A stretch of DNA of 21,991 nt from a virus. Both the position numbers and the translations under genes were made by a program. Below are positions 5,741 through 21,697 of the stretch, piece by piece. How positions within the stretch are numbered: the first letter of the stretch is position 1; the number at the start of each line of letters is the position of its first letter. The notes beneath the pieces were generated by a model that made no database searches, was not told the origin of the DNA, and worked only from the letters and a program-made list of their open reading frames with translations. The stretch lies in UHGV virus genome UHGV-0131363. The stretch is one strand, 5' to 3'.

Positions 5741-5768
5741 GAAATTAAAAAGGCTCCCGTAGGAGCCT
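5741..5768 (-). terminator. rho-independent terminator downstream of the Nampt-family gene
   Basis: Minus-strand RNA forms AGGCUCC-uacg-GGAGCCU (7-bp stem, plus-strand arms 5751-5757 and 5762-5768) followed by UUUUAAUUUC. Confidence 0.65.
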
Positions 5769-5771
5769 CTT

Positions 5772-5799
5772 ATCATATACTTTTAAAGCTGCTTGTCAA
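5772..5799 (-). promoter_or_regulatory. candidate sigma70-type promoter (-35 TTGACA, 16-nt spacer, -10 TATGAT) overlapping the 3' end of the Nampt-family gene
   Basis: Minus strand reads TTGACA (plus tgtcaa 5794-5799), a 16-nt spacer, then TATGAT (plus atcata 5772-5777). The predicted start site falls inside the terminator hairpin, so transcripts from here would bypass it and read into the 111-aa gene, the small zinc-finger ORF and rIIA. Confidence 0.3.
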
Positions 5800-7564
5800 T
5801 ATTATTTCGAATATCACCAAGAGTTGTGTAGCCGAACTGCTCAGAGTCGCTAAAGACTAGACGTAAAGCACAAGCTGGATGTTCAAGTGCATCTGCAAAG
5901 CTCTGGAACCCATAGCCATCTACAGCTTTCAGATTTTCACCATCCCACATAGGTGCTACACCACCAAAAGCAGACTTCTTAACACCACTATCTGTTTTAG
6001 GGTCTTTTGCAAGCATAATCTCTTTACCACCAATGCTTGCAAGGGTTGCTTTGACAGCAAATGCAAAGGTGTCACGAGTCATGTACTGGTAAGTGTAAGA
6101 ACCTACACCAAACACTACGTTAGAGCTTGCAAAACCCATTTCATACAAACGCTTCAGTATTTCATTTGCACGTTCCAACGTGATAGAGTCGCCATAAATA
6201 AGTCCAATATGCTCATCCAGTACTTTAAAGCCTTTAGAGTTAATAGTTCCCCCAAAGATGTTGTACAGTGTCTTAATAGCTCCATCAATCTCAGCTACAG
6301 GACGTGTTACAACGTTTGCAGAACCAACCATATAAGCATTTTTCAACATCACTGTATCAGCAACTTCAAAGTCTTCTCTGTCAACAACCATCTCGTAGCC
6401 TTCTGACAGTAGCCATCCAGCAATACCATAGTTGATGTTCTCAAGCTTCATGTTCAGAACAGCATTCAACATTGTGTCACTGGCTTCCAGCTTGCTTAGG
6501 TGCTCGTAATAAGCCTTCTTAGCACATTCTAAGTGGATTGCTTTATAACCTGTGACAATATGTACAGGGTCTCCAGAGTCAGGACGAATTACCAGTTTAC
6601 CGTCACGTCCCATAATCTCTTTGCGAAGTGCTGGTAAAATTTCTGACACAGTTCTCCAGAAGTTATAAGTGTCTGAAACAACACTTGCAATACCAGTTGG
6701 GTAAGTTTCTGTTAAGAAACGACGGAAGGTTTGTAACTCACCTTTAAAGCGTCTTTCTTCTTCAATCAACTCATTACCACCTTCCCAAGCAATGTTTGCA
6801 CACATTACAGAGTGCTCAGTGGCTGGTACAGAGCTACCAATATCAGAGATTGGGTAAGACTGCCCATAAATGCGTTTAGCCGTGTATACAGCAGGGAAGC
6901 TATCAGTTCCTTTAAAGCTGGTTAAGTGACCTACAGCATTAAATGCGTCATCAGTAAAGCCTGACATGCCACGCATAGCAAAGTCATGGCACTGATAGGG
7001 CAGATGCAAGTCGTTGTCACAAGTAAGGTCAGCCCACTTCTTACAGATGCGTTTGTAATGCAATGCAATAGTTGCAATGGTACAAGCCTTCCAAATCTCA
7101 GCAGAGAAAGCATCTTCCAGATAACCTGCTACCCAATGGAAACCTGAAACAGTGTTCTGGAAAACAATCATTGGGACACGCATAGGGACAACTGTGCCTT
7201 CTTCTACAGCGTATACTTCAACTGGTAGATAACCTAAGTCGTGAAGTGCTTCCCAATGCTCTCTACCGATAGCATCTTTACCCAGAACACCATTCATGAC
7301 TTCTAAGATTTCGTCAATTGCTTCTTTTTTATCACGTTCAAAGAAAGTGGCATTCCAGTGGTCTATCAAGTAATCTTTAACAAAACGTTGAATACCAAAA
7401 GCTACTACACCATCAATTGCTAAGGGGCTGTTAAACCATTTATCACTGCGTGGTGTCAGGTTCAACATAAGATATTGCGTAGCATCTGGATACTGATATA
7501 TATGTGATGCCTTGTAAGCATCTGCATTAAGACCTGCTGGTACTGCGTAAAGTGACTTACTCAT
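5783..7564 (-). CDS. nadV: nicotinamide phosphoribosyltransferase-family protein (Nampt/NadV-like); candidate Namat (nicotinamide ADP-ribose transferase) of a NARP1 NAD+ reconstitution pathway
   Basis: 593 aa. N-terminal NADAYKASHIYQYP (Nampt DSYK motif), HDFAMRGMSGF...HLTSFKGTDS...SVPATEHS, VVSDTYNFW...LVIRPDSGDP and GLIYGDSIT...VVFGVGSYTYQ follow the Nampt-family motif order. About 100 aa longer than canonical Nampt. Located 1 gene away from a Prs-family gene. Confidence 0.9.
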   Translation of the reverse strand: MSKSLYAVPAGLNADAYKASHIYQYPDATQYLMLNLTPRSDKWFNSPLAIDGVVAFGIQRFVKDYLIDHWNATFFERDKKEAIDEILEVMNGVLGKDAIGREHWEALHDLGYLPVEVYAVEEGTVVPMRVPMIVFQNTVSGFHWVAGYLEDAFSAEIWKACTIATIALHYKRICKKWADLTCDNDLHLPYQCHDFAMRGMSGFTDDAFNAVGHLTSFKGTDSFPAVYTAKRIYGQSYPISDIGSSVPATEHSVMCANIAWEGGNELIEEERRFKGELQTFRRFLTETYPTGIASVVSDTYNFWRTVSEILPALRKEIMGRDGKLVIRPDSGDPVHIVTGYKAIHLECAKKAYYEHLSKLEASDTMLNAVLNMKLENINYGIAGWLLSEGYEMVVDREDFEVADTVMLKNAYMVGSANVVTRPVAEIDGAIKTLYNIFGGTINSKGFKVLDEHIGLIYGDSITLERANEILKRLYEMGFASSNVVFGVGSYTYQYMTRDTFAFAVKATLASIGGKEIMLAKDPKTDSGVKKSAFGGVAPMWDGENLKAVDGYGFQSFADALEHPACALRLVFSDSEQFGYTTLGDIRNNIDKQL

Positions 7565-7570
7565 ATTTTA

Positions 7571-7582
7571 TCTCTCTCTCTC
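7571..7582. repeat. (TC)6 dinucleotide repeat forming the GAGAGA purine-rich RBS of the Nampt-family gene
   Basis: Plus strand tctctctctctc at 7571-7582 gives (GA)6 on the minus strand, 6 nt upstream of the ATG at 7564. Similar GAGAG runs precede other starts (rIIB, 10403, 20148). Confidence 0.7.
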
Positions 7583-8074
7583 TTAGTTATGTCTTGCAAA
7601 CTCACCATGAAGTTCTATTCGCTTTTTAATTACAGCTTCTTTTGCTTCTTCTACCGTTTTAAATCTTCCACAAAAGTATTCTTTATGGTAAAGCATGACT
7701 CTTGCTTTGTAAAGACCTGTTTGTTTACAAAAACTTACACCCTTCACACCAGTTTTATTATTCTTGTATATACCCCTATTCCTCTGATTTTGTGACTTTG
7801 TGCTAAGTCTTAAATTATCCAACTTATTATTAGATTTATCAAGGTCTATGTGGTCTATCTCATATCCACTTGGTATCTCACCTCCAGACATAATCCATGC
7901 AATATTATGTGCATAGTACCTCTTCTTATTTATCTGGACTTGGATATAACCCTTCTTAGACCTTGTGCCAGCCACATTACCAGCAATAGCGGTACTGCAA
8001 AGGGTTACTCTCCAAATTAATAAACCTGTATCTGGTTCATATATTAGGTATCTTTCAAAATAACCCTTATTCAT
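7583..8074 (-). CDS. free-standing HNH homing endonuclease with C-terminal AP2-type DNA-binding domain
   Basis: 163 aa. HNH motif GYEIDHIDLDKSNNKLDNLRLSTKSQNQRN and AP2-like segment GVKGVSFCKQTGLYKARVMLYHKEYFCGRFKTVEEAKEAV. Inserted between the Prs-family and Nampt-family genes. Confidence 0.75.
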   Translation of the reverse strand: MNKGYFERYLIYEPDTGLLIWRVTLCSTAIAGNVAGTRSKKGYIQVQINKKRYYAHNIAWIMSGGEIPSGYEIDHIDLDKSNNKLDNLRLSTKSQNQRNRGIYKNNKTGVKGVSFCKQTGLYKARVMLYHKEYFCGRFKTVEEAKEAVIKKRIELHGEFARHN

Positions 8075-8082
8075 ACTGTTAC

Positions 8083-8979
8083 CTAATCAATGGTTGCTAC
8101 AGTCACTTGACCGTAATGTGTTAAGCCACGGTCTTTAGCTTCACCTAAAGTGTTTGTAGTGTAGATATGGTCAATACCGTTGTCAAGTAAGTTTTCAACA
8201 CCTTTAGAGAAAATACCATGAGTTACATAGAGTTCCACACGTTTTGCACCTGCTTCACGTAGGTGTTTAGCTGCCTCTACGAAGGTTCGACCACCATCAC
8301 AGATATCATCAAGAATCATGACAGTTTTATCGGTCAAATCAACATCGTCAAGGATTCGCATACCAGTGATTTCTCCAGTCTTAAGATTGCGAACCTTAGA
8401 CATTGTGATATATGGTTTATCTACCTCTTTAGCGGTCTCTGCAACCTTCTTAGCAGCACCTGCATCTGGGGCTACTAAGTAATCAACCAGTGGGTCATTT
8501 GCATAGTGGACTGCAATCTCCTTTTGAGGAATACTCTGGAAGCAGTTAAACAGGTTATCTGGTACATAGCTGTGAGGGTCAACTGCACAGACTGCGCCAA
8601 ATCCCATTGCATTAATCTGTTTAGCAAAAACCTTTAAAGCTGCTGCGTCACCTTTAAACATGTGACGGTCATATCGTGCATTTGGTAAGTAGTAAAAGAT
8701 GACAGTCTTTAAAGCATAATCATGAGGAATTAAATCATCAATTGCTTCTTTAGCAAGTGCCACAGCAAATAATGTGTCTTTGTCATAACCCTTTACAATC
8801 ATAATCACGTTGTTGATGGATGATGTAGCATAAGCAGTAAAATCAACAAACTCTGGTGAAAAGTGTCCACCAATCTCACCAGAAGGGAATTGGACGATGT
8901 TAAACTCTTCTTCATGAGTCCCCTTAGCTGGTGAATGAACTGTAACACGGATAGATGTTTTCATAGTTTTCTCTCTCAA
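8083..8979 (-). CDS. prs: ribose-phosphate pyrophosphokinase-family protein (Prs-like); candidate Adps (ADP-ribose pyrophosphokinase) of a NARP1 NAD+ reconstitution pathway
   Basis: 298 aa. PRPP-synthetase motifs YLPNARYDRH (compare E. coli Prs YFGYARQDRR), VAPDAGAAKK, and the PRTase-type binding loop VMILDDICDGGRTF...GAKRVELYVTHGIFS. ATGA overlap with the upstream gene. Confidence 0.85.
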   Translation of the reverse strand: MREKTMKTSIRVTVHSPAKGTHEEEFNIVQFPSGEIGGHFSPEFVDFTAYATSSINNVIMIVKGYDKDTLFAVALAKEAIDDLIPHDYALKTVIFYYLPNARYDRHMFKGDAAALKVFAKQINAMGFGAVCAVDPHSYVPDNLFNCFQSIPQKEIAVHYANDPLVDYLVAPDAGAAKKVAETAKEVDKPYITMSKVRNLKTGEITGMRILDDVDLTDKTVMILDDICDGGRTFVEAAKHLREAGAKRVELYVTHGIFSKGVENLLDNGIDHIYTTNTLGEAKDRGLTHYGQVTVATID

Positions 8980-9254
8980 TCAAAAGTTACGTTTGTTACT
9001 GCCATTGCAGATTTGCATTTTACAGGGTCTACAACGTGGTAAAGTACACTACAGTTACCTGTGCTGTCTGGTACAGGCTTTACCCATTGCTGCTTTATAG
9101 TTGGCTCTCCTAAGTCTTTGTAAGAACCATCTGTAAAGTTGTTTACCATCTCAAGTGCAATTGGTTCTGGAACATGACCACGTATCATGTACATCTCACA
9201 ACCATTACCTCCTTCACTGACTAATGGTAAAATCTCCCACTTTTCTTTAGCCAT
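8976..9254 (-). CDS. hypothetical protein (92 aa)
   Basis: ORF translationally coupled to neighbours (ATGA overlap downstream, 8-nt overlap upstream). No recognisable motif. Confidence 0.5.
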   Translation of the reverse strand: MAKEKWEILPLVSEGGNGCEMYMIRGHVPEPIALEMVNNFTDGSYKDLGEPTIKQQWVKPVPDSTGNCSVLYHVVDPVKCKSAMAVTNVTFD

Positions 9255-9762
9255 TATAAGTTGCCCTATAAACTGTCTCGAACTTCAACAGGAGAGATAT
9301 TGCCAAATCTGTATAGTTGTTGTCAAGCACATCTGGCATATTATTTTTGATATATTTCTCTTGCTCTTCATAGGTCATCTTAGGGATACTTAGGAGGCTA
9401 TCTCCTTGCTTCTGGTTATCAGCTTTAGTTTGGATAAACCAGTTTGCACAGTGATGTTCACCACCTTTTGTAACAGGTTTGTGATGACCTAATGTAAATG
9501 TTTGCTTACCAGTATACCTGCAAAGATTGTTCAGTGTTGCAATGGTGTTCTTCACAACACACCATTCATACAGGTTATCTATTGTGTAGTGTGGGTAATA
9601 ACGGACAAGTGCTCTTTCACGGAAGTTATCACGATTCCAAAGAACCATGTGATTAGAATTTGAAGGGTCATATTTGTGGGAGTCTATAAACTCTTGACGC
9701 TCATCAAAGCTGAGTCTTAGAACTGACATTGCAACCGAACGTTTCAGGTTTGACAGGTACAT
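9247..9762 (-). CDS. hypothetical protein with possible His-Me finger (HNH-like) nuclease motif
   Basis: 171 aa. Segment LGHHKPVTKGGEHHCANWFIQTKADNQKQG resembles the HH...GG...N...N pattern of HNH/His-Me finger nucleases but lacks the zinc-binding cysteines. RBS GGAGG upstream of the ATG at 9762. Confidence 0.5.
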   Translation of the reverse strand: MYLSNLKRSVAMSVLRLSFDERQEFIDSHKYDPSNSNHMVLWNRDNFRERALVRYYPHYTIDNLYEWCVVKNTIATLNNLCRYTGKQTFTLGHHKPVTKGGEHHCANWFIQTKADNQKQGDSLLSIPKMTYEEQEKYIKNNMPDVLDNNYTDLAISLLLKFETVYRATYNG

Positions 9763-9771
9763 TTTACCTCC

Positions 9772-9801
9772 AAAATAAAAAGGGAACCTTTACAGTTCCC
9801 C
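9772..9801 (-). terminator. rho-independent terminator followed directly by the RBS of the 171-aa gene
   Basis: Minus-strand RNA forms GGGGAAC-uguaaag-GUUCCCU (6-7 bp, plus-strand arms 9782-9787 and 9795-9800) followed by UUUUUAUUUU, then GGAGG and the ATG. Confidence 0.55.
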
Positions 9802-9813
9802 TATAGTATCTGT

Positions 9814-11186: not shown

Positions 11187-11195
11187 CTAGTTACC

Positions 11196-11495
11196 TCACC
11201 AATACATATAAGTGTTCTTAGCAGCTTTCTTCGGAGACTTACTGTCAATGTCAAAGTCTTCATCTAAGAAGGATGTCTTAGAAAGCTGCCTTATTTGTGT
11301 TCTTGTAAGACGTTTAGTAGCCCTCTTAATCTCTCTACAAGGCTGACTTGTAAAGTCATAAGAGCCACCTTTTCTGGACATCATATCAGAATGGAAGTAG
11401 ACATCTGAAGCATTTTCTCTGTTACGTACCTCATTTCTCCACTCATAAAGTCCATGAACGTTCTTTAAACCTTTTCTTCGAATTGTTTTACTCAT
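11196..11495 (-). CDS. hypothetical protein (99 aa)
   Basis: ORF in the same-strand array between nrdD and nrdG. No recognisable motif. Confidence 0.5.
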   Translation of the reverse strand: MSKTIRRKGLKNVHGLYEWRNEVRNRENASDVYFHSDMMSRKGGSYDFTSQPCREIKRATKRLTRTQIRQLSKTSFLDEDFDIDSKSPKKAAKNTYMYW

Positions 11496-11887
11496 TCAAA
11501 CACCACCTGATAAGGAACCAGTTTAGTAATAAACTCTTCACAGTGCTCTTTAATGAAGTTTTGCAATGGCACACAGTCTTGTGCACAAGTCATTAACATA
11601 ATGTACTCTGGATTCATAATGTTATCAATACTGTAGAAGACAACATCGTTAGATAATTCGTGACCGTCTTCTTCAGACCAAGTTCCAGTGACTACAACTA
11701 ATTTGTCAAGCAACTCATTAGGCAACGCTGCACCATCTTCTATGGAATCACTTAGAACGTTGTCACTGATGTACAATGTAAATGTCGTGCGGAATGTTGA
11801 GTATCTTACATGATTCTTTTCACAAGAGCCACACTCTGAAGCGTAATCTTTAATCCACTCTAACTGTTTTTGGTTCAACTTAATCAT
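11492..11887 (-). CDS. hypothetical protein (131 aa)
   Basis: ORF with 4-nt overlaps to both neighbours. Cys-containing N-terminus (ECGSCEK). No recognisable family. Confidence 0.55.
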   Translation of the reverse strand: MIKLNQKQLEWIKDYASECGSCEKNHVRYSTFRTTFTLYISDNVLSDSIEDGAALPNELLDKLVVVTGTWSEEDGHELSNDVVFYSIDNIMNPEYIMLMTCAQDCVPLQNFIKEHCEEFITKLVPYQVVFE

Positions 11888-12084
11888 AATTTCACCTTAG
11901 TTGGTAATGCGCTGAATGCTATAGCTAACCCTAAAAATGGTTTGAAGCATGACCATAAATCCATCTGACCATGATATGATAAACTCCATTGTGGGTCTGA
12001 AAAACCCCATAACATAACACTAACCCCAAAGAAGAAGATTAGAATGTGGAGTATGTATATCATCGTTTTTGATATCTTAAACAT
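11884..12084 (-). CDS. hypothetical small membrane protein (66 aa)
   Basis: Hydrophobic segment IYILHILIFFFGVSVMLWGF. Coupled by a 4-nt overlap to the downstream gene. Confidence 0.45.
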   Translation of the reverse strand: MFKISKTMIYILHILIFFFGVSVMLWGFSDPQWSLSYHGQMDLWSCFKPFLGLAIAFSALPTKVKL

Positions 12085-12238
12085 TTTAACTTATCTCTCA
12101 ATTCACAATAAGAGAGTCCTAAAAAGAACCCTAGTAAGACAGAACCTATGAATAGGCCAATGATGTTCTCTGCCATATCTAACATCCAATAAAAAAGGTG
12201 ATGCAAGCCTATCAAGACCCACATCACCTTGTCAAGTT

Positions 12239-14383
12239 TTACATAGAAATTCTGTCACGAATCTCAGCGATTTTTGCATCATTCATTCGAGATTCACCTT
12301 TAATCTTAGTCCACCCAAGATATCCGCACACCCTGTTAATCACAGAGATGTCGTGTGAATGGCAAACCTCACATTCTTCAACATCAGCCTTTGGTCTGTT
12401 ACCACAATGTTCACAGATTGCTAAGTCAAAGTTAAGTCCCTGATAAAAACCCTTCAACATCCCTCTGGTAATACAACTTTTAAGTGCTGGCAAGTTTTCT
12501 GGGTTAGCTACCCTTACATACTGGATTCTGCCGCCTCTACAGATATGGAAGAATGGCTCTTCTAAGTCCTGCTTCTCAAATGGTGAGATGTCTGCTGCAA
12601 CATTCATATGGAAACTGTTTGTAAAGTATTCCTTGTCAGAGACACCTTTAATGACGCCAAACATATCTCTGAACTGTTTTAACTGAGTTCCACAAAGTGA
12701 TTCTGCTGGAGTGCCATATACCGCATACAAGAAGCCATCTTCGTTCTTAAACTCTTCAGTTTTCATGTTGATGTATTCCAGAACATCATATGCAAAACTA
12801 TAGCCTCCAACTTCATGAAGTCGTTTACCTTCAGCAAGAACAGATAGCTCATCAAGCGCAGTAACCCCAAAAGAAGCTGTGAAGGACTTCACAATATCCC
12901 AACCAACCCTGTCAGTAGGCTTCTTAGTTCCTTTGTACAGACCACCTTGTGTAAATGCAAGAGGGTTAGAACTTGCTGGCATATTGGCAATCATTTCATA
13001 GCGTTTCTTGTGGAAGCTGCGAATCATCTCTAGGTACTTATCAAGCTCTTTCCAGAAATCTAAACCATTCTCTTTAGAATACTGGTAAATCATTGGTAAG
13101 TTCAAAGATACAGCACCAATGTTAGCACGACCAACGTAGAACTCTTCCCCATCCTCGTTAAGATATGGAGATAAGAAGGCTCTACAACCCATCGGCGAGA
13201 TTACCTTGCCAGAACGCTCAAAAGCTTCTGCTACAGCACCATGACCAGATACACTTAAGAAATCTGGATACATCGCTTTAGAGCAACACTCTATAGCTTT
13301 ACTGTACAGGTGGCCTTGACAGATATTCTCATTATGTCTCTTCTGGTCATAAATATAAACCAGTTTAGGGAATACAACAGGTTTCTTGCTCTTACCTTGT
13401 CCATTCATACGAACATCTAGGAGAGTACTTGCAATCATATATTGCAGTCGGTTATCTTCATTAGACATATCTGAGTCAAGTAACCCGAATGTCAAAGTTG
13501 TAAATGCAAAATCCCCACGGCTACAAGGTACGGTATTTAGTTTCATTTCAAGTGACTGGAAACCTTGAGTTAGTTCAATCTGTAGCTGCTCCATGACATA
13601 ATTGTGGTAATGTTCTTTAGGAATACCATAAGATGCTGCTTTCTCAGCATGATAGCGTAGAGACTTCTTAGCATACGGTACAAGTACCTTATCAATCTCT
13701 GCTAAAGTAAAGCCACCAAATTGCTGTGCAGTTGCTGAAAGAACTACGTCTCCAATAACCTGTAAGGCCGACAGCGCAGACTTTGGTTCACAATATTCGA
13801 TGCCAGACATTTCAAAGCCACCTTTCAGGACTTTACCAATGTCAAACAGGCAACAGTTGATACCACCAAAGATTAGGTCTCTTAAATCATGGATATAGAT
13901 AAACCCTTTTTCAATGGCTTCAAGTTCCTCTGGTGTTAAATGGTACTGTTTAAAGATTTCTTTAGTCAGATAACCACGAATAATTGAACCTTTTGTAGAA
14001 ATTAAACTGCTGTCAAAGTTAGCATTCTCTCTGTCACCTAAGAAGAGTGTATCTTTGGTCTTCTGGTAGAGTTCATCCCAATTTTGAGCAACTTCTTTAC
14101 GGTAATTTCTATATGTTGAGTAAGACTCATAAATCTCGTGATTAACTTCTGCCAAAGCACCTTCAACAATACTGTGAATATCATTTACCGAGATAAGCAA
14201 ATTATTCTGCTTAGCGGACTTTACCAGAATCCTCATAAATGCTGACTCAAGAGCTTGAGTAACATCTGGTGGAAGCTCTTTATAACCAACCCTATTAGCT
14301 GACTTTGTGACTGCTGCTAAAACTTTTTTGATATCAGGTTCTTCGAGTGAGCCATTCTTTTTAATAATCTGTACTTTGTTCAT
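12239..14383 (-). CDS. nrdD: anaerobic ribonucleoside-triphosphate reductase NrdD (glycyl-radical enzyme)
   Basis: 714 aa. C-terminal zinc ribbon CEHCG...CEVCHSH and glycyl-radical motif RVCGYLG. N-terminal ATP-cone-like region. Internal SPMGCRAFLSPY and YGTPAESLC resemble NrdD active-site regions. Confidence 0.95.
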   Translation of the reverse strand: MNKVQIIKKNGSLEEPDIKKVLAAVTKSANRVGYKELPPDVTQALESAFMRILVKSAKQNNLLISVNDIHSIVEGALAEVNHEIYESYSTYRNYRKEVAQNWDELYQKTKDTLFLGDRENANFDSSLISTKGSIIRGYLTKEIFKQYHLTPEELEAIEKGFIYIHDLRDLIFGGINCCLFDIGKVLKGGFEMSGIEYCEPKSALSALQVIGDVVLSATAQQFGGFTLAEIDKVLVPYAKKSLRYHAEKAASYGIPKEHYHNYVMEQLQIELTQGFQSLEMKLNTVPCSRGDFAFTTLTFGLLDSDMSNEDNRLQYMIASTLLDVRMNGQGKSKKPVVFPKLVYIYDQKRHNENICQGHLYSKAIECCSKAMYPDFLSVSGHGAVAEAFERSGKVISPMGCRAFLSPYLNEDGEEFYVGRANIGAVSLNLPMIYQYSKENGLDFWKELDKYLEMIRSFHKKRYEMIANMPASSNPLAFTQGGLYKGTKKPTDRVGWDIVKSFTASFGVTALDELSVLAEGKRLHEVGGYSFAYDVLEYINMKTEEFKNEDGFLYAVYGTPAESLCGTQLKQFRDMFGVIKGVSDKEYFTNSFHMNVAADISPFEKQDLEEPFFHICRGGRIQYVRVANPENLPALKSCITRGMLKGFYQGLNFDLAICEHCGNRPKADVEECEVCHSHDISVINRVCGYLGWTKIKGESRMNDAKIAEIRDRISM

Positions 14384-18872: not shown

Positions 18873-19188
18873 GGTATTTCTCCAAGTTTCTTTTTAGATA
18901 TAACCAACCATAGTCAGTTCTTTCTACACCCATGAAGAGTGGAGCCATTACAACTTTACCAAAAGTATTCCTGTGTTGACAGATTTCAAAAGAATACTCT
19001 TTCTCAATATCAATCCCGTATTTGTACAGGACTGCTTTTAAAACTTGTTCATTATCCAGAAGTGTATCTGGAGTCTCACCATACTTCTCAAGTAACGGGT
19101 CATTCATAAACACCGTCATAGAGATATTGTAGTTTGAGAAGTGGCTCTTCTGAGCCACACCTTCTTTATTAATGTTCTGTGAATCCAT
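18865..19188 (-). CDS. hypothetical protein (start at ATG 19188; ORF-track start 19197 is TTG)
   Basis: First in-frame ATG at 19188..19186 gives MDSQNINKEG.... Overlaps the upstream gene by 20 nt. Confidence 0.45.
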   Translation of the reverse strand: MDSQNINKEGVAQKSHFSNYNISMTVFMNDPLLEKYGETPDTLLDNEQVLKAVLYKYGIDIEKEYSFEICQHRNTFGKVVMAPLFMGVERTDYGWLYLKRNLEKYRV

Positions 19189-19924
19189 TATAACCAACCC
19201 CTTTTAACCAGCACTTCAGGTTATTAGCATCATAATTCAGTTTCGGGTATGAGGTTACATGGAACTGCTCACCATCATAGTAGACAATATCTGCAATCCA
19301 TAGTCCATTCTCTTTACAGAAGTCTTTATCTGCTTTAGAGGTAATTGGATTAACTTCTACAAAACCATCTACACCCAAATCCTTTAAGCTACATACAATA
19401 CCTTTGCAGATAACGCATGTGTCAGATACTACCACAAAAAGTTCTTGGCTTTCAAGTTCTACAATGTATTCACCAAGCTGAACTTTAGGGAGATTAGATT
19501 GCTTCATAATCTTCCCATCGGCTGCGCGAACAATTGCATACCACTCTTTACCATCAACTACTGACATTCTGATGATACACTCTTGACCAGTACGCTTCTC
19601 AATATCTGCAAGACGTTTTAAAGCTTCTTCATAGTCGTCTGTGTACTTCAGGTCATTATTATGGCAAACGGCTTCCATAGCGCCATTGTGGTCATGCTGT
19701 GACAGATAAATCAGACCGTCAAGAACATATTGCAAATCTGCCTGAGCATCCAGTGTCTCAATGGGGTCTTTCTCTTCAATTGCTTTTACAAGCTCTTTTG
19801 CTTCTTCAAGCATACATAGAGATTGAGATTTCAAAGACTCCCAATACTCATCACTGTAAGGTTGCTTTTGAGTGTTTCCACAACGAAGATTCCAGTTTTT
19901 TACTGATTCTCTTGAGTTAAACAT
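19169..19924 (-). CDS. two-domain protein: N-terminal MazG-like all-alpha NTP pyrophosphohydrolase-like region, C-terminal CxxC thioredoxin-fold-like region
   Basis: 251 aa. N-terminal LEEAKELVKAIEE...LDAQADLQYVLDGLIYL fits the EExxE...D metal-binding pattern of MazG/dCTPase-type enzymes. C-terminal LFVVVSDTCVICKGIV...LGVDGFVEV resembles a glutaredoxin/thioredoxin beta-CxxC-alpha unit. Both assignments are by eye only. Confidence 0.5.
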   Translation of the reverse strand: MFNSRESVKNWNLRCGNTQKQPYSDEYWESLKSQSLCMLEEAKELVKAIEEKDPIETLDAQADLQYVLDGLIYLSQHDHNGAMEAVCHNNDLKYTDDYEEALKRLADIEKRTGQECIIRMSVVDGKEWYAIVRAADGKIMKQSNLPKVQLGEYIVELESQELFVVVSDTCVICKGIVCSLKDLGVDGFVEVNPITSKADKDFCKENGLWIADIVYYDGEQFHVTSYPKLNYDANNLKCWLKGVGYNGFTEH

Positions 19925-20148
19925 TTGGACTCCTTAAAATATCTGTTAACCTTTAGCTCTCGTGTTTCAATATATTCCAGATGTTCACGTAGCTCTTGAC
20001 GTTTAAGCATTAGGTGCTGCATTTGAGATTCAACAGCTTCAACCTCTTTAATTATTGACTCTCTGGCATTTGCAAGAATGCGCTCAAGTTCTTCAATCTT
20101 GCTGTCAACTTTTGCTACATGACTCACAGCTTTACTTTTGTTAAACAT
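19900..20148 (-). CDS. hypothetical coiled-coil protein (82 aa from ATG 20148; ORF-track start 20163 is TTG)
   Basis: The ATG at 20148 is preceded by GAGAGAGAATAAA. Product is helical and charged (IEELERILANARESIIKEVEAVESQMQHLMLKRQELREHLEYIE). Confidence 0.45.
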   Translation of the reverse strand: MFNKSKAVSHVAKVDSKIEELERILANARESIIKEVEAVESQMQHLMLKRQELREHLEYIETRELKVNRYFKESKCLTQENQ

Positions 20149-20169
20149 TTTATTCTCTCTCAATAGTTA

Positions 20170-20667
20170 TCAAGCACAGTTTGCTTTCATTACCTTATGG
20201 ATTCTTTTTTCAGCATCTTCATAAGTTTCTTTAGTAATAAACTTAATTGCTGCAATATTGGCATTGTAGAAGAGCCTGAGCTTAGAGTCAATCCTTTTTG
20301 TCATTACATCGAATTTATGTTGAAGATTTGCTTCACCATAGACTAGGCCACCTTTTGTGTAGTAGGTCTGAATAATGTAAAAGTCAAAAAATTCTTTTCC
20401 AAAGCTCTCAATATCTTTTTTAATATACTCAGAAGAAGTCTCATAAGTCATCCAATCACTCTCCTTAGTGACTACCTTCTTCCGAGTCTTGCCAGCAACT
20501 TTTCTTTTAGTCACACTATTAAGCTGTTTCTTTCCGATATAATATTGTCCAGTCTTCTTACAGTGTACTAAATAGACAAAGCCAAAATGTTTAGTGGGGT
20601 CAACTTCCCCACATAAAGATACCCAATGACCATAGGTGGGGCAATTGCCAAATCCTTTAATCTTCAT
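20170..20667 (-). CDS. hypothetical protein with GIY-YIG-like motif (possible DenA/Seg-type nuclease)
   Basis: 165 aa. Segment HFGFVYLVHCKKTGQYYIGKKQ has the GIY-(10 aa)-YIG spacing of GIY-YIG nucleases (compare T4 endonuclease II VIYAIAINDELVYIGKT). Downstream catalytic Arg/Glu not confidently placed. Confidence 0.45.
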   Translation of the reverse strand: MKIKGFGNCPTYGHWVSLCGEVDPTKHFGFVYLVHCKKTGQYYIGKKQLNSVTKRKVAGKTRKKVVTKESDWMTYETSSEYIKKDIESFGKEFFDFYIIQTYYTKGGLVYGEANLQHKFDVMTKRIDSKLRLFYNANIAAIKFITKETYEDAEKRIHKVMKANCA

Positions 20668-21697
20668 TCATACACGGCTCCCAATTATATTTCTTGAAAG
20701 AGAAATTGTCTTTTGGATTTCTCTCTTGATATGCTATCCAGAAATGCTGTTCCATTAACTCTAACGGTGTCTTTGTAACAGTCTGTCCATCCCATGACAC
20801 ATAGGTATAAGAGTCTTTTTTAGCATAAAGTTCATAGATAGCATCAAGACACTCTTTGTAGGTCTCTTTACCGTCTAAAGCATTCATCACAGCTACTTTA
20901 CCAGCACCTTTAAGGCCAAAGTAGTTGTCTGCATTATCTCCAGCAACAGCCTGATAACACAAGAATTTAAAACCTACACCAACTGTTTTTGAAGCTTTTG
21001 GTTTTGATTTGATAGGACAATCCCAGATATCACCAACATTATTATCAGCAATAAAAATTAGTGGTGATTTTTCATAGGTCATATCAATACAATAAGTTCC
21101 TTCAGCTTGTCGAAGGTCTTTGTCAATACTCATAAGAGCAGCCTTCTTACCCATCTTTTCAGCTTTAGCAATTACGATTGAATCGGCTTCGAAGCCCCCC
21201 TTTAAGAGCTTGAACTCTGGTCTGGATAAAAGGTATTCACGACAAGCGACTAAGTGTGTTGGTGTGACAGCATCTTTACGATTACCTTGATATTGGTGCT
21301 CAAGACCTTTAATGTCTTTATGTTTATGCACACCCTTCTCTGTTAAATAACCTACCCAAGTTCTTTCTTTACCAACAATCTTAAGCCATTCCTGAAGCAC
21401 CTGTTGAGTAGCCATGATAGCTTCTTTTTCACTCTTAGCTTCTTTCCAAGTTTGTCTTTCCCATTCATCTTCCTCAAATGTCAGGCCAAGCTCTTCCACA
21501 AGGATTCTCTGGTCTGCTAACCATCTTGCAGCATCTTTCGCATTATCAAATGGTTCAGACTCTTCTGCTGTGAGTTTATTAACGTATTTATACTTTGCTT
21601 TCTCAACTACACAAGCACCTTTATAGGCAATGCTGTCAGAGTCAATAAAGACATGTGTAACTGAATCGGGAAGCTTTGTTAATGTGTACTTCTCCAT
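20657..21697 (-). CDS. rnh: RNase H / 5'-3' flap endonuclease (FEN family, T4 rnh-like)
   Basis: 346 aa. N-terminal THVFIDSDSIAYKGAC (T4 RNase H GICLIDFSQIALSTA) and EADSIVIAKAEKMGKKAALMSIDKDLRQ (T4 EADDHIAVLVKK...ILIISSDGDFTQL) match the metal-binding motifs of FEN/T4 RNase H. RBS GGAGAG upstream of the ATG at 21697. Confidence 0.6.
   Translation of the reverse strand: MEKYTLTKLPDSVTHVFIDSDSIAYKGACVVEKAKYKYVNKLTAEESEPFDNAKDAARWLADQRILVEELGLTFEEDEWERQTWKEAKSEKEAIMATQQVLQEWLKIVGKERTWVGYLTEKGVHKHKDIKGLEHQYQGNRKDAVTPTHLVACREYLLSRPEFKLLKGGFEADSIVIAKAEKMGKKAALMSIDKDLRQAEGTYCIDMTYEKSPLIFIADNNVGDIWDCPIKSKPKASKTVGVGFKFLCYQAVAGDNADNYFGLKGAGKVAVMNALDGKETYKECLDAIYELYAKKDSYTYVSWDGQTVTKTPLELMEQHFWIAYQERNPKDNFSFKKYNWEPCMNED

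Follow-up and report, generated by a model that had tools for sequence, protein, structure and literature searches.

Organization of the adps–namat locus

The window, by which we mean the whole stretch of 21,991 nt analysed here (UHGV virus genome UHGV-0131363), shows 92–96% megablast identity to many E. coli and Salmonella phages and belongs to Felixounavirus (Felix O1-like phages, Ounavirinae). An earlier note on this DNA had viewed the locus in terms of T4-like phages, a placement that these matches do not bear out. Three co-oriented genes, adps, an endonuclease gene and namat, follow one another on the minus strand, and the endonuclease gene starts 8 nt after the end of adps and stops 18 nt before namat (Table 1). 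The two flanking genes are orthologous over their full length to genes 79 and 80 of phage Bas63 (JohannRWettstein), the experimentally defined NARP1 pair (bioRxiv 10.1101/2024.02.11.579819). Through the NARP1 pathway, NAD+ is restored from ADPR and nicotinamide, which acts against defences that deplete NAD+ (bioRxiv 10.1101/2024.02.11.579819; PMC12774641). The mechanical open reading frame of adps reaches a TTG at 8979 (8083..8979); a start at 8964 is more likely, since the annotated orthologues are 882 nt long.

Table 1. Features of the adps–namat region, in window coordinates
Feature	Position	Strand	Remarks
Terminator-like hairpin after namat	5748..5771	-	Strong; end of the transcription unit; same element in Bas63
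Nampt-family gene, Namat of NARP1	5783..7564	-	NAPRTase, NAMPT_N; 97% amino acid identity to Bas63 gp80
Haplotype block linked to the endonuclease gene	7463..7564	-	First ~100 nt of namat; putative co-conversion tract; cleavage site predicted inside or bordering it
Downstream junction	7565..7582	-	Endonuclease TAA, (GA)6 (7571-7582), TAAAAT, namat ATG
HNH-AP2 endonuclease gene	7583..8074	-	163 codons plus TAA, ATG start; allele of Felix O1 ORF128
AP2 DNA-binding domain	7604..7753	-	Residues 108-157; three strands and a helix
HNH_3 (beta-beta-alpha-metal) nuclease domain	7781..7918	-	Residues 53-98; D74-H75, N87, N96 and N99 conserved
Upstream junction	8075..8085	-	adps stop TAG (8083-8085), 8-nt spacer GTAACAGT, then endonuclease ATG
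Prs-family gene, Adps of NARP1	8083..8964	-	Pribosyltran/Pribosyl_synth; 79% amino acid identity to Bas63 gp79
Terminator-like hairpin upstream of the unit	9780..9802	-	Before ORF 9247..9762; annotated terminator in ASO1A and AYO145A

Domains, catalytic residues and fold of the endonuclease

The product of the endonuclease gene matches the HNH_3 profile (PF13392) over its full length (profile positions 1–46) with an E value of 2e-19 and 69.4 bits, as compared to the curated Pfam cut-off of 24.8 bits. The match to the AP2 profile (PF00847) remains below threshold, with 20.9 bits against a cut-off of 33.3 bits. Many homologues carry a precomputed PF00847 assignment together with PF13392. PHROG 99 ('HNH endonuclease') matches the ORF at 5e-68, and 94 homologues were found at E ≤ 1e-10. 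In an alignment of 49 family members, H75, R89, N96 and N99 are invariant, while D74, N87 and L88 are conserved in at least 90% of the sequences. The catalytic residues follow the D-H...N...N arrangement of the HNN-type beta-beta-alpha-metal nucleases, and they are kept in all 16 locus copies that we compared.

An AlphaFold2 model built on the same 49-sequence alignment reached a mean pLDDT of 91.2. Its top fold match in the PDB is I-HmuI (1u3e; probability 1.0, Foldseek E value 2e-4), followed by I-PpoI, while a sequence search of the PDB with the protein gave no match at E ≤ 1. The C-terminal unit of the model consists of three strands (113-116, 121-128 and 131-138) and a helix (141-159), and it superposes on the plant AP2 domains 7et5 (rmsd 1.2 Å over 53 columns) and 1gcc (rmsd 1.4 Å over 49 columns), with a probability of 1.0. 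The modelled fold, the PF00847 assignments of the homologues and the PHROG 99 match thus confirm the AP2 domain, despite its sub-threshold Pfam score.

The ORF is intact in each of the 16 copies compared, with dN/dS values of 0.11–0.24, and no paralogue of the protein was detected in the window at E < 1e-5. Given the low AP2 score, one might suspect a chance ORF, or a degenerate pseudogene, with a spurious domain match. We regard this as a negligible prospect; it is refuted by the scores of the HNH_3 (69 bits) and PHROG 99 matches and the 94 homologues, as well as by the confident model and its matches to the I-HmuI and AP2 structures. The earlier note had proposed an HNH-AP2 gene between the Prs-family and Nampt-family genes, and the ORF, the HNH_3 match and the AP2 fold agree with it. 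The note had also named a lack of HNH catalytic residues as grounds for doubt; H75, N96 and N99 are all present and invariant.

Distribution of the gene and structure of the empty allele

The locus is present in 257 phage records, of which only 61 yielded the endonuclease protein in a tblastn search at a minimum identity of 80%, and empty adps–namat junctions were found in most relatives, as the comparison proposed in the earlier note had anticipated for a mobile insert. Records of carriers align in one piece and most others in two, spanning about 2,720 nt as compared to 3,197. When the junction of an empty allele served as the probe and 60 of the matches were sampled evenly, about 13 turned out to be occupied, and 15 of the 37 non-redundant loci that we fetched carry the gene. 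About a quarter of the Felix O1-like phages therefore possess the endonuclease gene, and about three quarters lack it. Bas63, in which NARP1 was shown to work, has an empty site.

The empty allele is a conserved spacer of 44–49 nt with the organization TGA/TAA-AAnTTTATA-GGGGCT-loop-AGCCCC-ATTTT-GAGAGAGAT-TAAAAG-ATG. Its stem is conserved while the loop varies, also in other genera, and the hairpin folds at −13.9 kcal/mol (z −2.6). In the carrier allele, about 30 nt including this hairpin are swapped for the endonuclease cassette. The hairpin is annotated as a rho-independent terminator in AYO145A, but a simple terminator scan does not call it, as only four T follow the stem. Since the terminator assignment comes from one depositor and the scan was negative, we set aside the view of a proven terminator and refer to a conserved hairpin. 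The possibility that the empty site is a deletion scar was ruled out by the hairpin spacer, which is common to several genera.

The earlier note had further described the junction as a mobility hotspot. This wording goes too far, as a single endonuclease lineage was seen at the junction in all of the loci examined.

Divergence of the endonuclease gene and its flanks

The gene and its flanks do not share one history. Between the window and the phages of the VpaE1/Si3/Mushroom type, the endonuclease gene is 99.6–99.8% identical at the nucleotide level with a dS of 0, whereas the flanks are 92–95% identical with a dS of 0.25–0.30; locus L011 behaves in the same manner (99.8% against 92–95%). As compared with phiSUSP1 (Suspvirus) and L027, the gene retains 90–91% nucleotide identity (dS 0.39), while the flanks fall to 75–77% and the dS of adps rises to 1.17. 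The relation is reversed in phages of the L004/ASO1A/Felix O1 type, where the dS of the endonuclease is about 0.4 and that of the flanks 0.13–0.25; the gene is 89% identical to that of L004 and L032, and the flanks 94–97%. A dS of 0 within flanks of dS 0.25–0.30 requires a recent transfer and cannot be produced by loss alone. In neighbour-joining trees of either flank, the distribution of 15 carriers among 37 genomes takes a Fitch minimum of 12–13 changes, as compared to about 12 for shuffled labels; the presence of the gene carries no phylogenetic signal on these trees. The gene is thus missing from most relatives and its divergence is uncoupled from that of the flanks, as the earlier note had proposed for a mobile insert and contrary to the old resident that it had named as the alternative.

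The copy in the window is itself a mosaic: almost all of its 13 differences from the L019/L036 type lie in the first ~100 nt of the gene. Recombination is also visible in adps (8083-8979), which occurs in two allele classes in otherwise close phages, with ~79–81% and 90–96% nucleotide identity to the window. The divergence between the classes is concentrated in the 5' 300–600 nt, which places recombination breakpoints inside adps, and both classes are found with and without the endonuclease gene.

Over larger distances, the picture differs. A homologue with 80% identity (L044) sits at the same Prs|Nampt junction with a flank identity of 75%, and homologues with 56% identity, in Pectobacterium phage Arno162 (L042) and in L046, also occupy this junction. 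At this depth, which counts against homing, the divergence of the endonuclease is close to that of its flanks (56% against 44–52% amino acid identity), so that much of its history was vertical. These comparisons suggest that the lineage is old and site-specific, that its deep history was mostly vertical, and that it continues to move horizontally within and between Felixounavirus and Suspvirus.

The purifying selection on the endonuclease is also compatible with a domesticated function. The gene could then be an old resident whose HNH-AP2 product serves the phage, in NARP1 regulation via the AP2 domain or in DNA processing, and which was lost by deletion in many lineages. Such a resident would fit the dN/dS of 0.11–0.24, the intactness of all copies, and the finding that distant Ounavirinae-like phages have the gene in the same place and about as diverged as the genes around it. 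We nevertheless judge it rather improbable: about three quarters of the close relatives do without the gene, including Bas63 with its working NARP1, the empty site is a conserved cross-genus hairpin spacer with no deletion scar, and the dS of 0 demands the recent transfer described above.

A linked tract extends into namat

We scanned 13 carrier and 17 empty Felixounavirus loci, among ~250 public genomes, for positions associated with the endonuclease gene. Across these 30 loci, no position inside adps is linked to its presence. The adps stop codon is perfectly linked (TAG with the insert, TGA or TAA in the empty alleles), as are the namat positions −1 (T/G) and +5 (G/C, encoding Ser2/Thr2), and linkage is near-perfect at +18. 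All of the carriers share one haplotype up to namat +102, beyond which the association returns to background.

The tract recurs beyond the genus. In two cross-genus carriers of the Suspvirus type, ~90–100 nt of the namat 5' end match the window almost base for base, while the remainder of namat is ~76% identical; the crossing of genus borders by this linked tract speaks further against a domesticated resident. The window and the loci with the most closely related cassettes (L011, L013, L034, L035 and L039) are nearly identical over a block that begins ~19 nt before the endonuclease ATG and ends at namat +102..+117. On the left, the minimal shared unit stops precisely where the gene does; on the right, it reaches ~120 nt past the gene. 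A one-sided tract of this kind is expected if cleavage occurs on the namat side, because the stretch between the cut and the gene is then obligatorily co-converted, and the cut site is accordingly predicted to lie on that side.

Among the 17 empty alleles, four already have the carrier-type haplotype from namat +34 or +54 to +102, and the other 13 keep the alternative one; the former may represent empty sites that are resistant. REP7 has an empty site with the carrier-type haplotype (+34..+102), and Bas63 one with the alternative haplotype. In the +54..+102 patch the two haplotypes differ by ~40%, and the sharp boundary at +102 could therefore reflect a block to crossovers by this hyper-divergent patch instead of cleavage. 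The G4/C4 hairpin of the empty spacer is an equally plausible recognition element, and AP2 domains have been reported to favour GC-rich DNA (PMC10448857). The search for a homing target in the flanks, which the earlier note had suggested, thus delimits an interval from the adps stop codon to ~+105 of namat, with the hairpin and the +54..+102 patch as candidates, but does not single out a finer site.

As these phages are highly mosaic, general homologous recombination could also move the cassette without a nuclease. The gene would then have homed once and now be carried along passively, its product inactive on present-day targets or left without sensitive ones. Such a passive state would accord with the mosaic flanks, the two adps allele classes with their breakpoints in adps, the recombination inside the endonuclease gene, and the four empty alleles with the putatively resistant haplotype (+34..+102). 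We think it unlikely, as every lineage combines intact ORFs and conserved catalytic residues with a dN/dS far under 1, the tight block that is shared lies to one side and its ends are not random, and 13 of the 17 empty alleles retain the alternative haplotype.

A frameshift was noted in the namat gene of L039 (phage ekra, MN850644), where a 2-nt AT insertion in an (AT)4 run at +61 (around window position 7500-7507) shifts the frame; the depositors annotated this namat as shortened. The shift may stem from an error in sequencing, or NARP1 may truly be inactivated in this phage.

Junctions and expression of the three genes

The earlier note had drawn attention to a (TC)6 microsatellite at the namat-side junction. 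The repeat lies exactly at 7571-7582 and is not random, with one occurrence found as compared to 0.04 expected from shuffles. Read on the coding strand, it is the (GA)6 of TAA-(GA)6-TAAAAT-ATG, the Shine-Dalgarno region of namat, and a ribosome-binding site is annotated at this position in phage Mushroom. The (GA)n run counts four units in most relatives, whether or not these have the insert, five in L016 and L017, and six in the window and L019; the homology of the carrier and empty alleles resumes at this region. Because relatives without the insert also have (GA)4-5, the repeat is the native, pre-existing ribosome-binding site of namat, expanded by slippage from four to six units, and not an insertion scar. 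The location given for the repeat therefore stands, but its reading as a signature of the insertion junction does not, as it also occurs in empty alleles.

The suggestion that the insert uncouples the expression of the two NAD-pathway genes found no support. Promoter-like matches in or near the insert are at chance level (14, as compared to 12.4 in shuffles), and so are terminator-like matches (5 against 2.7), which leaves an own promoter or transcriptional uncoupling unsupported. The insert replaces the intergenic hairpin and leaves three tightly packed, co-oriented genes together with the native namat ribosome-binding site.

The hairpin that is removed is the only one between adps and namat. 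We consider it possible, though unlikely, that the endonuclease gene changes the Adps:Namat expression ratio through the loss of this hairpin and the addition of a third cistron, and so alters how carriers rebuild NAD+ against SIR2/TIR-type defences. If this were the case, selfish drive and anti-defence performance would be traded off against each other and so maintain the carrier/empty polymorphism (~1:3), with the endonuclease also spreading one particular Namat N-terminal allele.

At the start of the endonuclease gene, a predicted stem, ATTAGGTA paired with TACCTAAT (8030-8090, minus strand), encloses an SD-like AGG and the start codon and involves pairing with codons 9–11. It is kept in three sub-lineages, one of which has two extra pairs (TT with AA). 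Taken by itself, the stem does not reach significance (z −1.0), and L044, the homologue with 80% identity, lacks it. It may dampen translation of the endonuclease, which we offer as a weak idea.

A proposed homing route for the endonuclease gene

Taken together, the gene is probably a free-standing HNH(HNH_3)-AP2 homing endonuclease gene specific for the adps–namat junction of the Felix O1-like phages. The 8-nt and 18-nt spacers, and the terminators bounding the unit, suggest that it is co-transcribed with adps and namat. On the basis of its fold and residues, the protein would bind DNA via the AP2 domain and nick or cut it with a single-metal beta-beta-alpha-Me site formed by D74, H75 and N96. 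In a mixed infection, the empty allele of a co-infecting relative would be cut between the adps stop codon and ~+105 of namat, and repair, with the endonuclease as its putative driver, would copy the gene from the carrier genome. In the course of this repair, the conserved 30-nt hairpin spacer, which the carriers have replaced, would be exchanged for the gene, and the bases proximal to the namat ribosome-binding site would be co-converted with the first ~100 nt of namat, in keeping with the linked tract. Carrier genomes would be made immune by the loss of the hairpin and by the many, mostly synonymous, differences at the 5' end of their namat. The lineage is probably old at the adps–namat site but still moving between genomes and genera.

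Other endonuclease genes and candidates in the window and its relatives

Several other endonuclease genes or candidates occur in the window or at the corresponding sites of its relatives. A GIY-YIG endonuclease domain of the SegE type (Pfam, 9.4e-28) was detected in a 165-aa ORF at 20170-20667 (minus strand). In contrast to the HNH-AP2 gene, this ORF occurs in nearly all relatives, with 223 of 240 records covering at least 80% of the 2.5-kb region; it is annotated variously as 'GIY-YIG homing endonuclease' or 'NAD synthetase'. At ~19169-21697, the relatives ULIM8, BPS15Q2, O157 typing phage 12, radambza and GEC_vB_NS7 contain an extra ~490 nt annotated as 'HNH endonuclease' or 'AP2 domain protein', so that a site used elsewhere by a second HNH-AP2 endonuclease gene, a paralogue of the first, is empty in the window. 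A tblastn search with the endonuclease protein hits two or three places per genome, consistent with such a second gene.

Upstream of adps, at 9247-9762 (minus strand), a conserved 171-aa ORF (phrog_3500) weakly matches an HNH endonuclease PHROG and contains a motif resembling HHKP...N...N; in ULIM3 it is broken into two ORFs, and pinkbiff and ekra have a shorter version. Between nrdG and nrdD, phage Mushroom (L034, 8234-8734) has a NUMOD3 'homing endonuclease'. The window, at about 11190-12240, has two small ORFs at this site, 11196-11495 (weak DUF5499 match) and 11492-11887. Here too, then, an endonuclease gene of the region is present in one phage and absent from another.

Relation to known systems

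The element itself is already known. Felix O1 carries the gene as ORF128 (NP_945017.1, 'HNH endonuclease') between ORF127 (prs) and nadV, in the same position, with 163 codons and with a catalytic motif that differs by conservative changes only. The allele in the window falls into a different sub-lineage, with a dS of 0.38 to the Felix O1 copy, and is followed by (GA)6 instead of (GA)4. The gene is annotated in dozens of GenBank records, many of them as an HNH homing endonuclease; gp5 of phage Mushroom is named 'HNH homing endonuclease, AP2/ERF domain'. Six copies of HNH endonucleases were described in the Felix O1 genome paper (PMC3185647). In the literature searched, we found no paper linking NARP1 with a homing endonuclease, and no description of the splitting of NARP1 by this gene, of the hairpin replacement or of the one-sided tract into namat.

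In about a quarter of the Felix O1-like phages, including Felix O1, a selfish endonuclease gene splits the NARP1 anti-defence operon. The sensitive, putatively resistant and occupied alleles in sequenced isolates offer a clean natural system for mapping the target of an HNH-AP2 endonuclease, and the locus could show whether the insert affects the output of NARP1.

Among characterized enzymes, I-HmuI, the HNH homing endonuclease of Bacillus phage SPO1, is the best structural match to the whole model, and the two have the same kind of HNN-type beta-beta-alpha-Me site. I-HmuI is a nicking enzyme. It differs from the window protein in that it is intron-encoded and in that the C-terminal module of our model matches AP2 domains, not I-HmuI; the identity between the two proteins is 18%.

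Intronless homing is carried out by free-standing T4-type endonucleases, the Seg and Mob proteins. The window gene resembles these systems in its intergenic position by a conserved gene, its patchy distribution, and the co-conversion of neighbouring markers on the side where cleavage is presumed; exchange bounded by homing endonuclease genes has been described (PMC10448857). It differs in phage group, as the window phage is one of the Ounavirinae, and in protein family, as Seg is GIY-YIG and Mob combines HNH with a zinc finger (PMC10448857), whereas the window protein is HNH-AP2.

A further relationship is to the HNH-AP2 family, which, as far as the work of Magnani et al. (2004) is summarized in PMC4237383 and PMC10448857, includes members from Trichodesmium, Tetrahymena, phage RB49 and phage Felix 01, and from which the plant AP2 domains were proposed to derive. 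The window protein shares with this family an N-terminal HNH domain, a C-terminal AP2 domain and a free-standing gene in a phage genome, with no substantial difference. No new kind of element is therefore revealed, and the value of the locus lies mainly in the context that it gives to NARP1: it holds an ordinary, already annotated homing endonuclease gene with the comparative signature of ongoing mobility.
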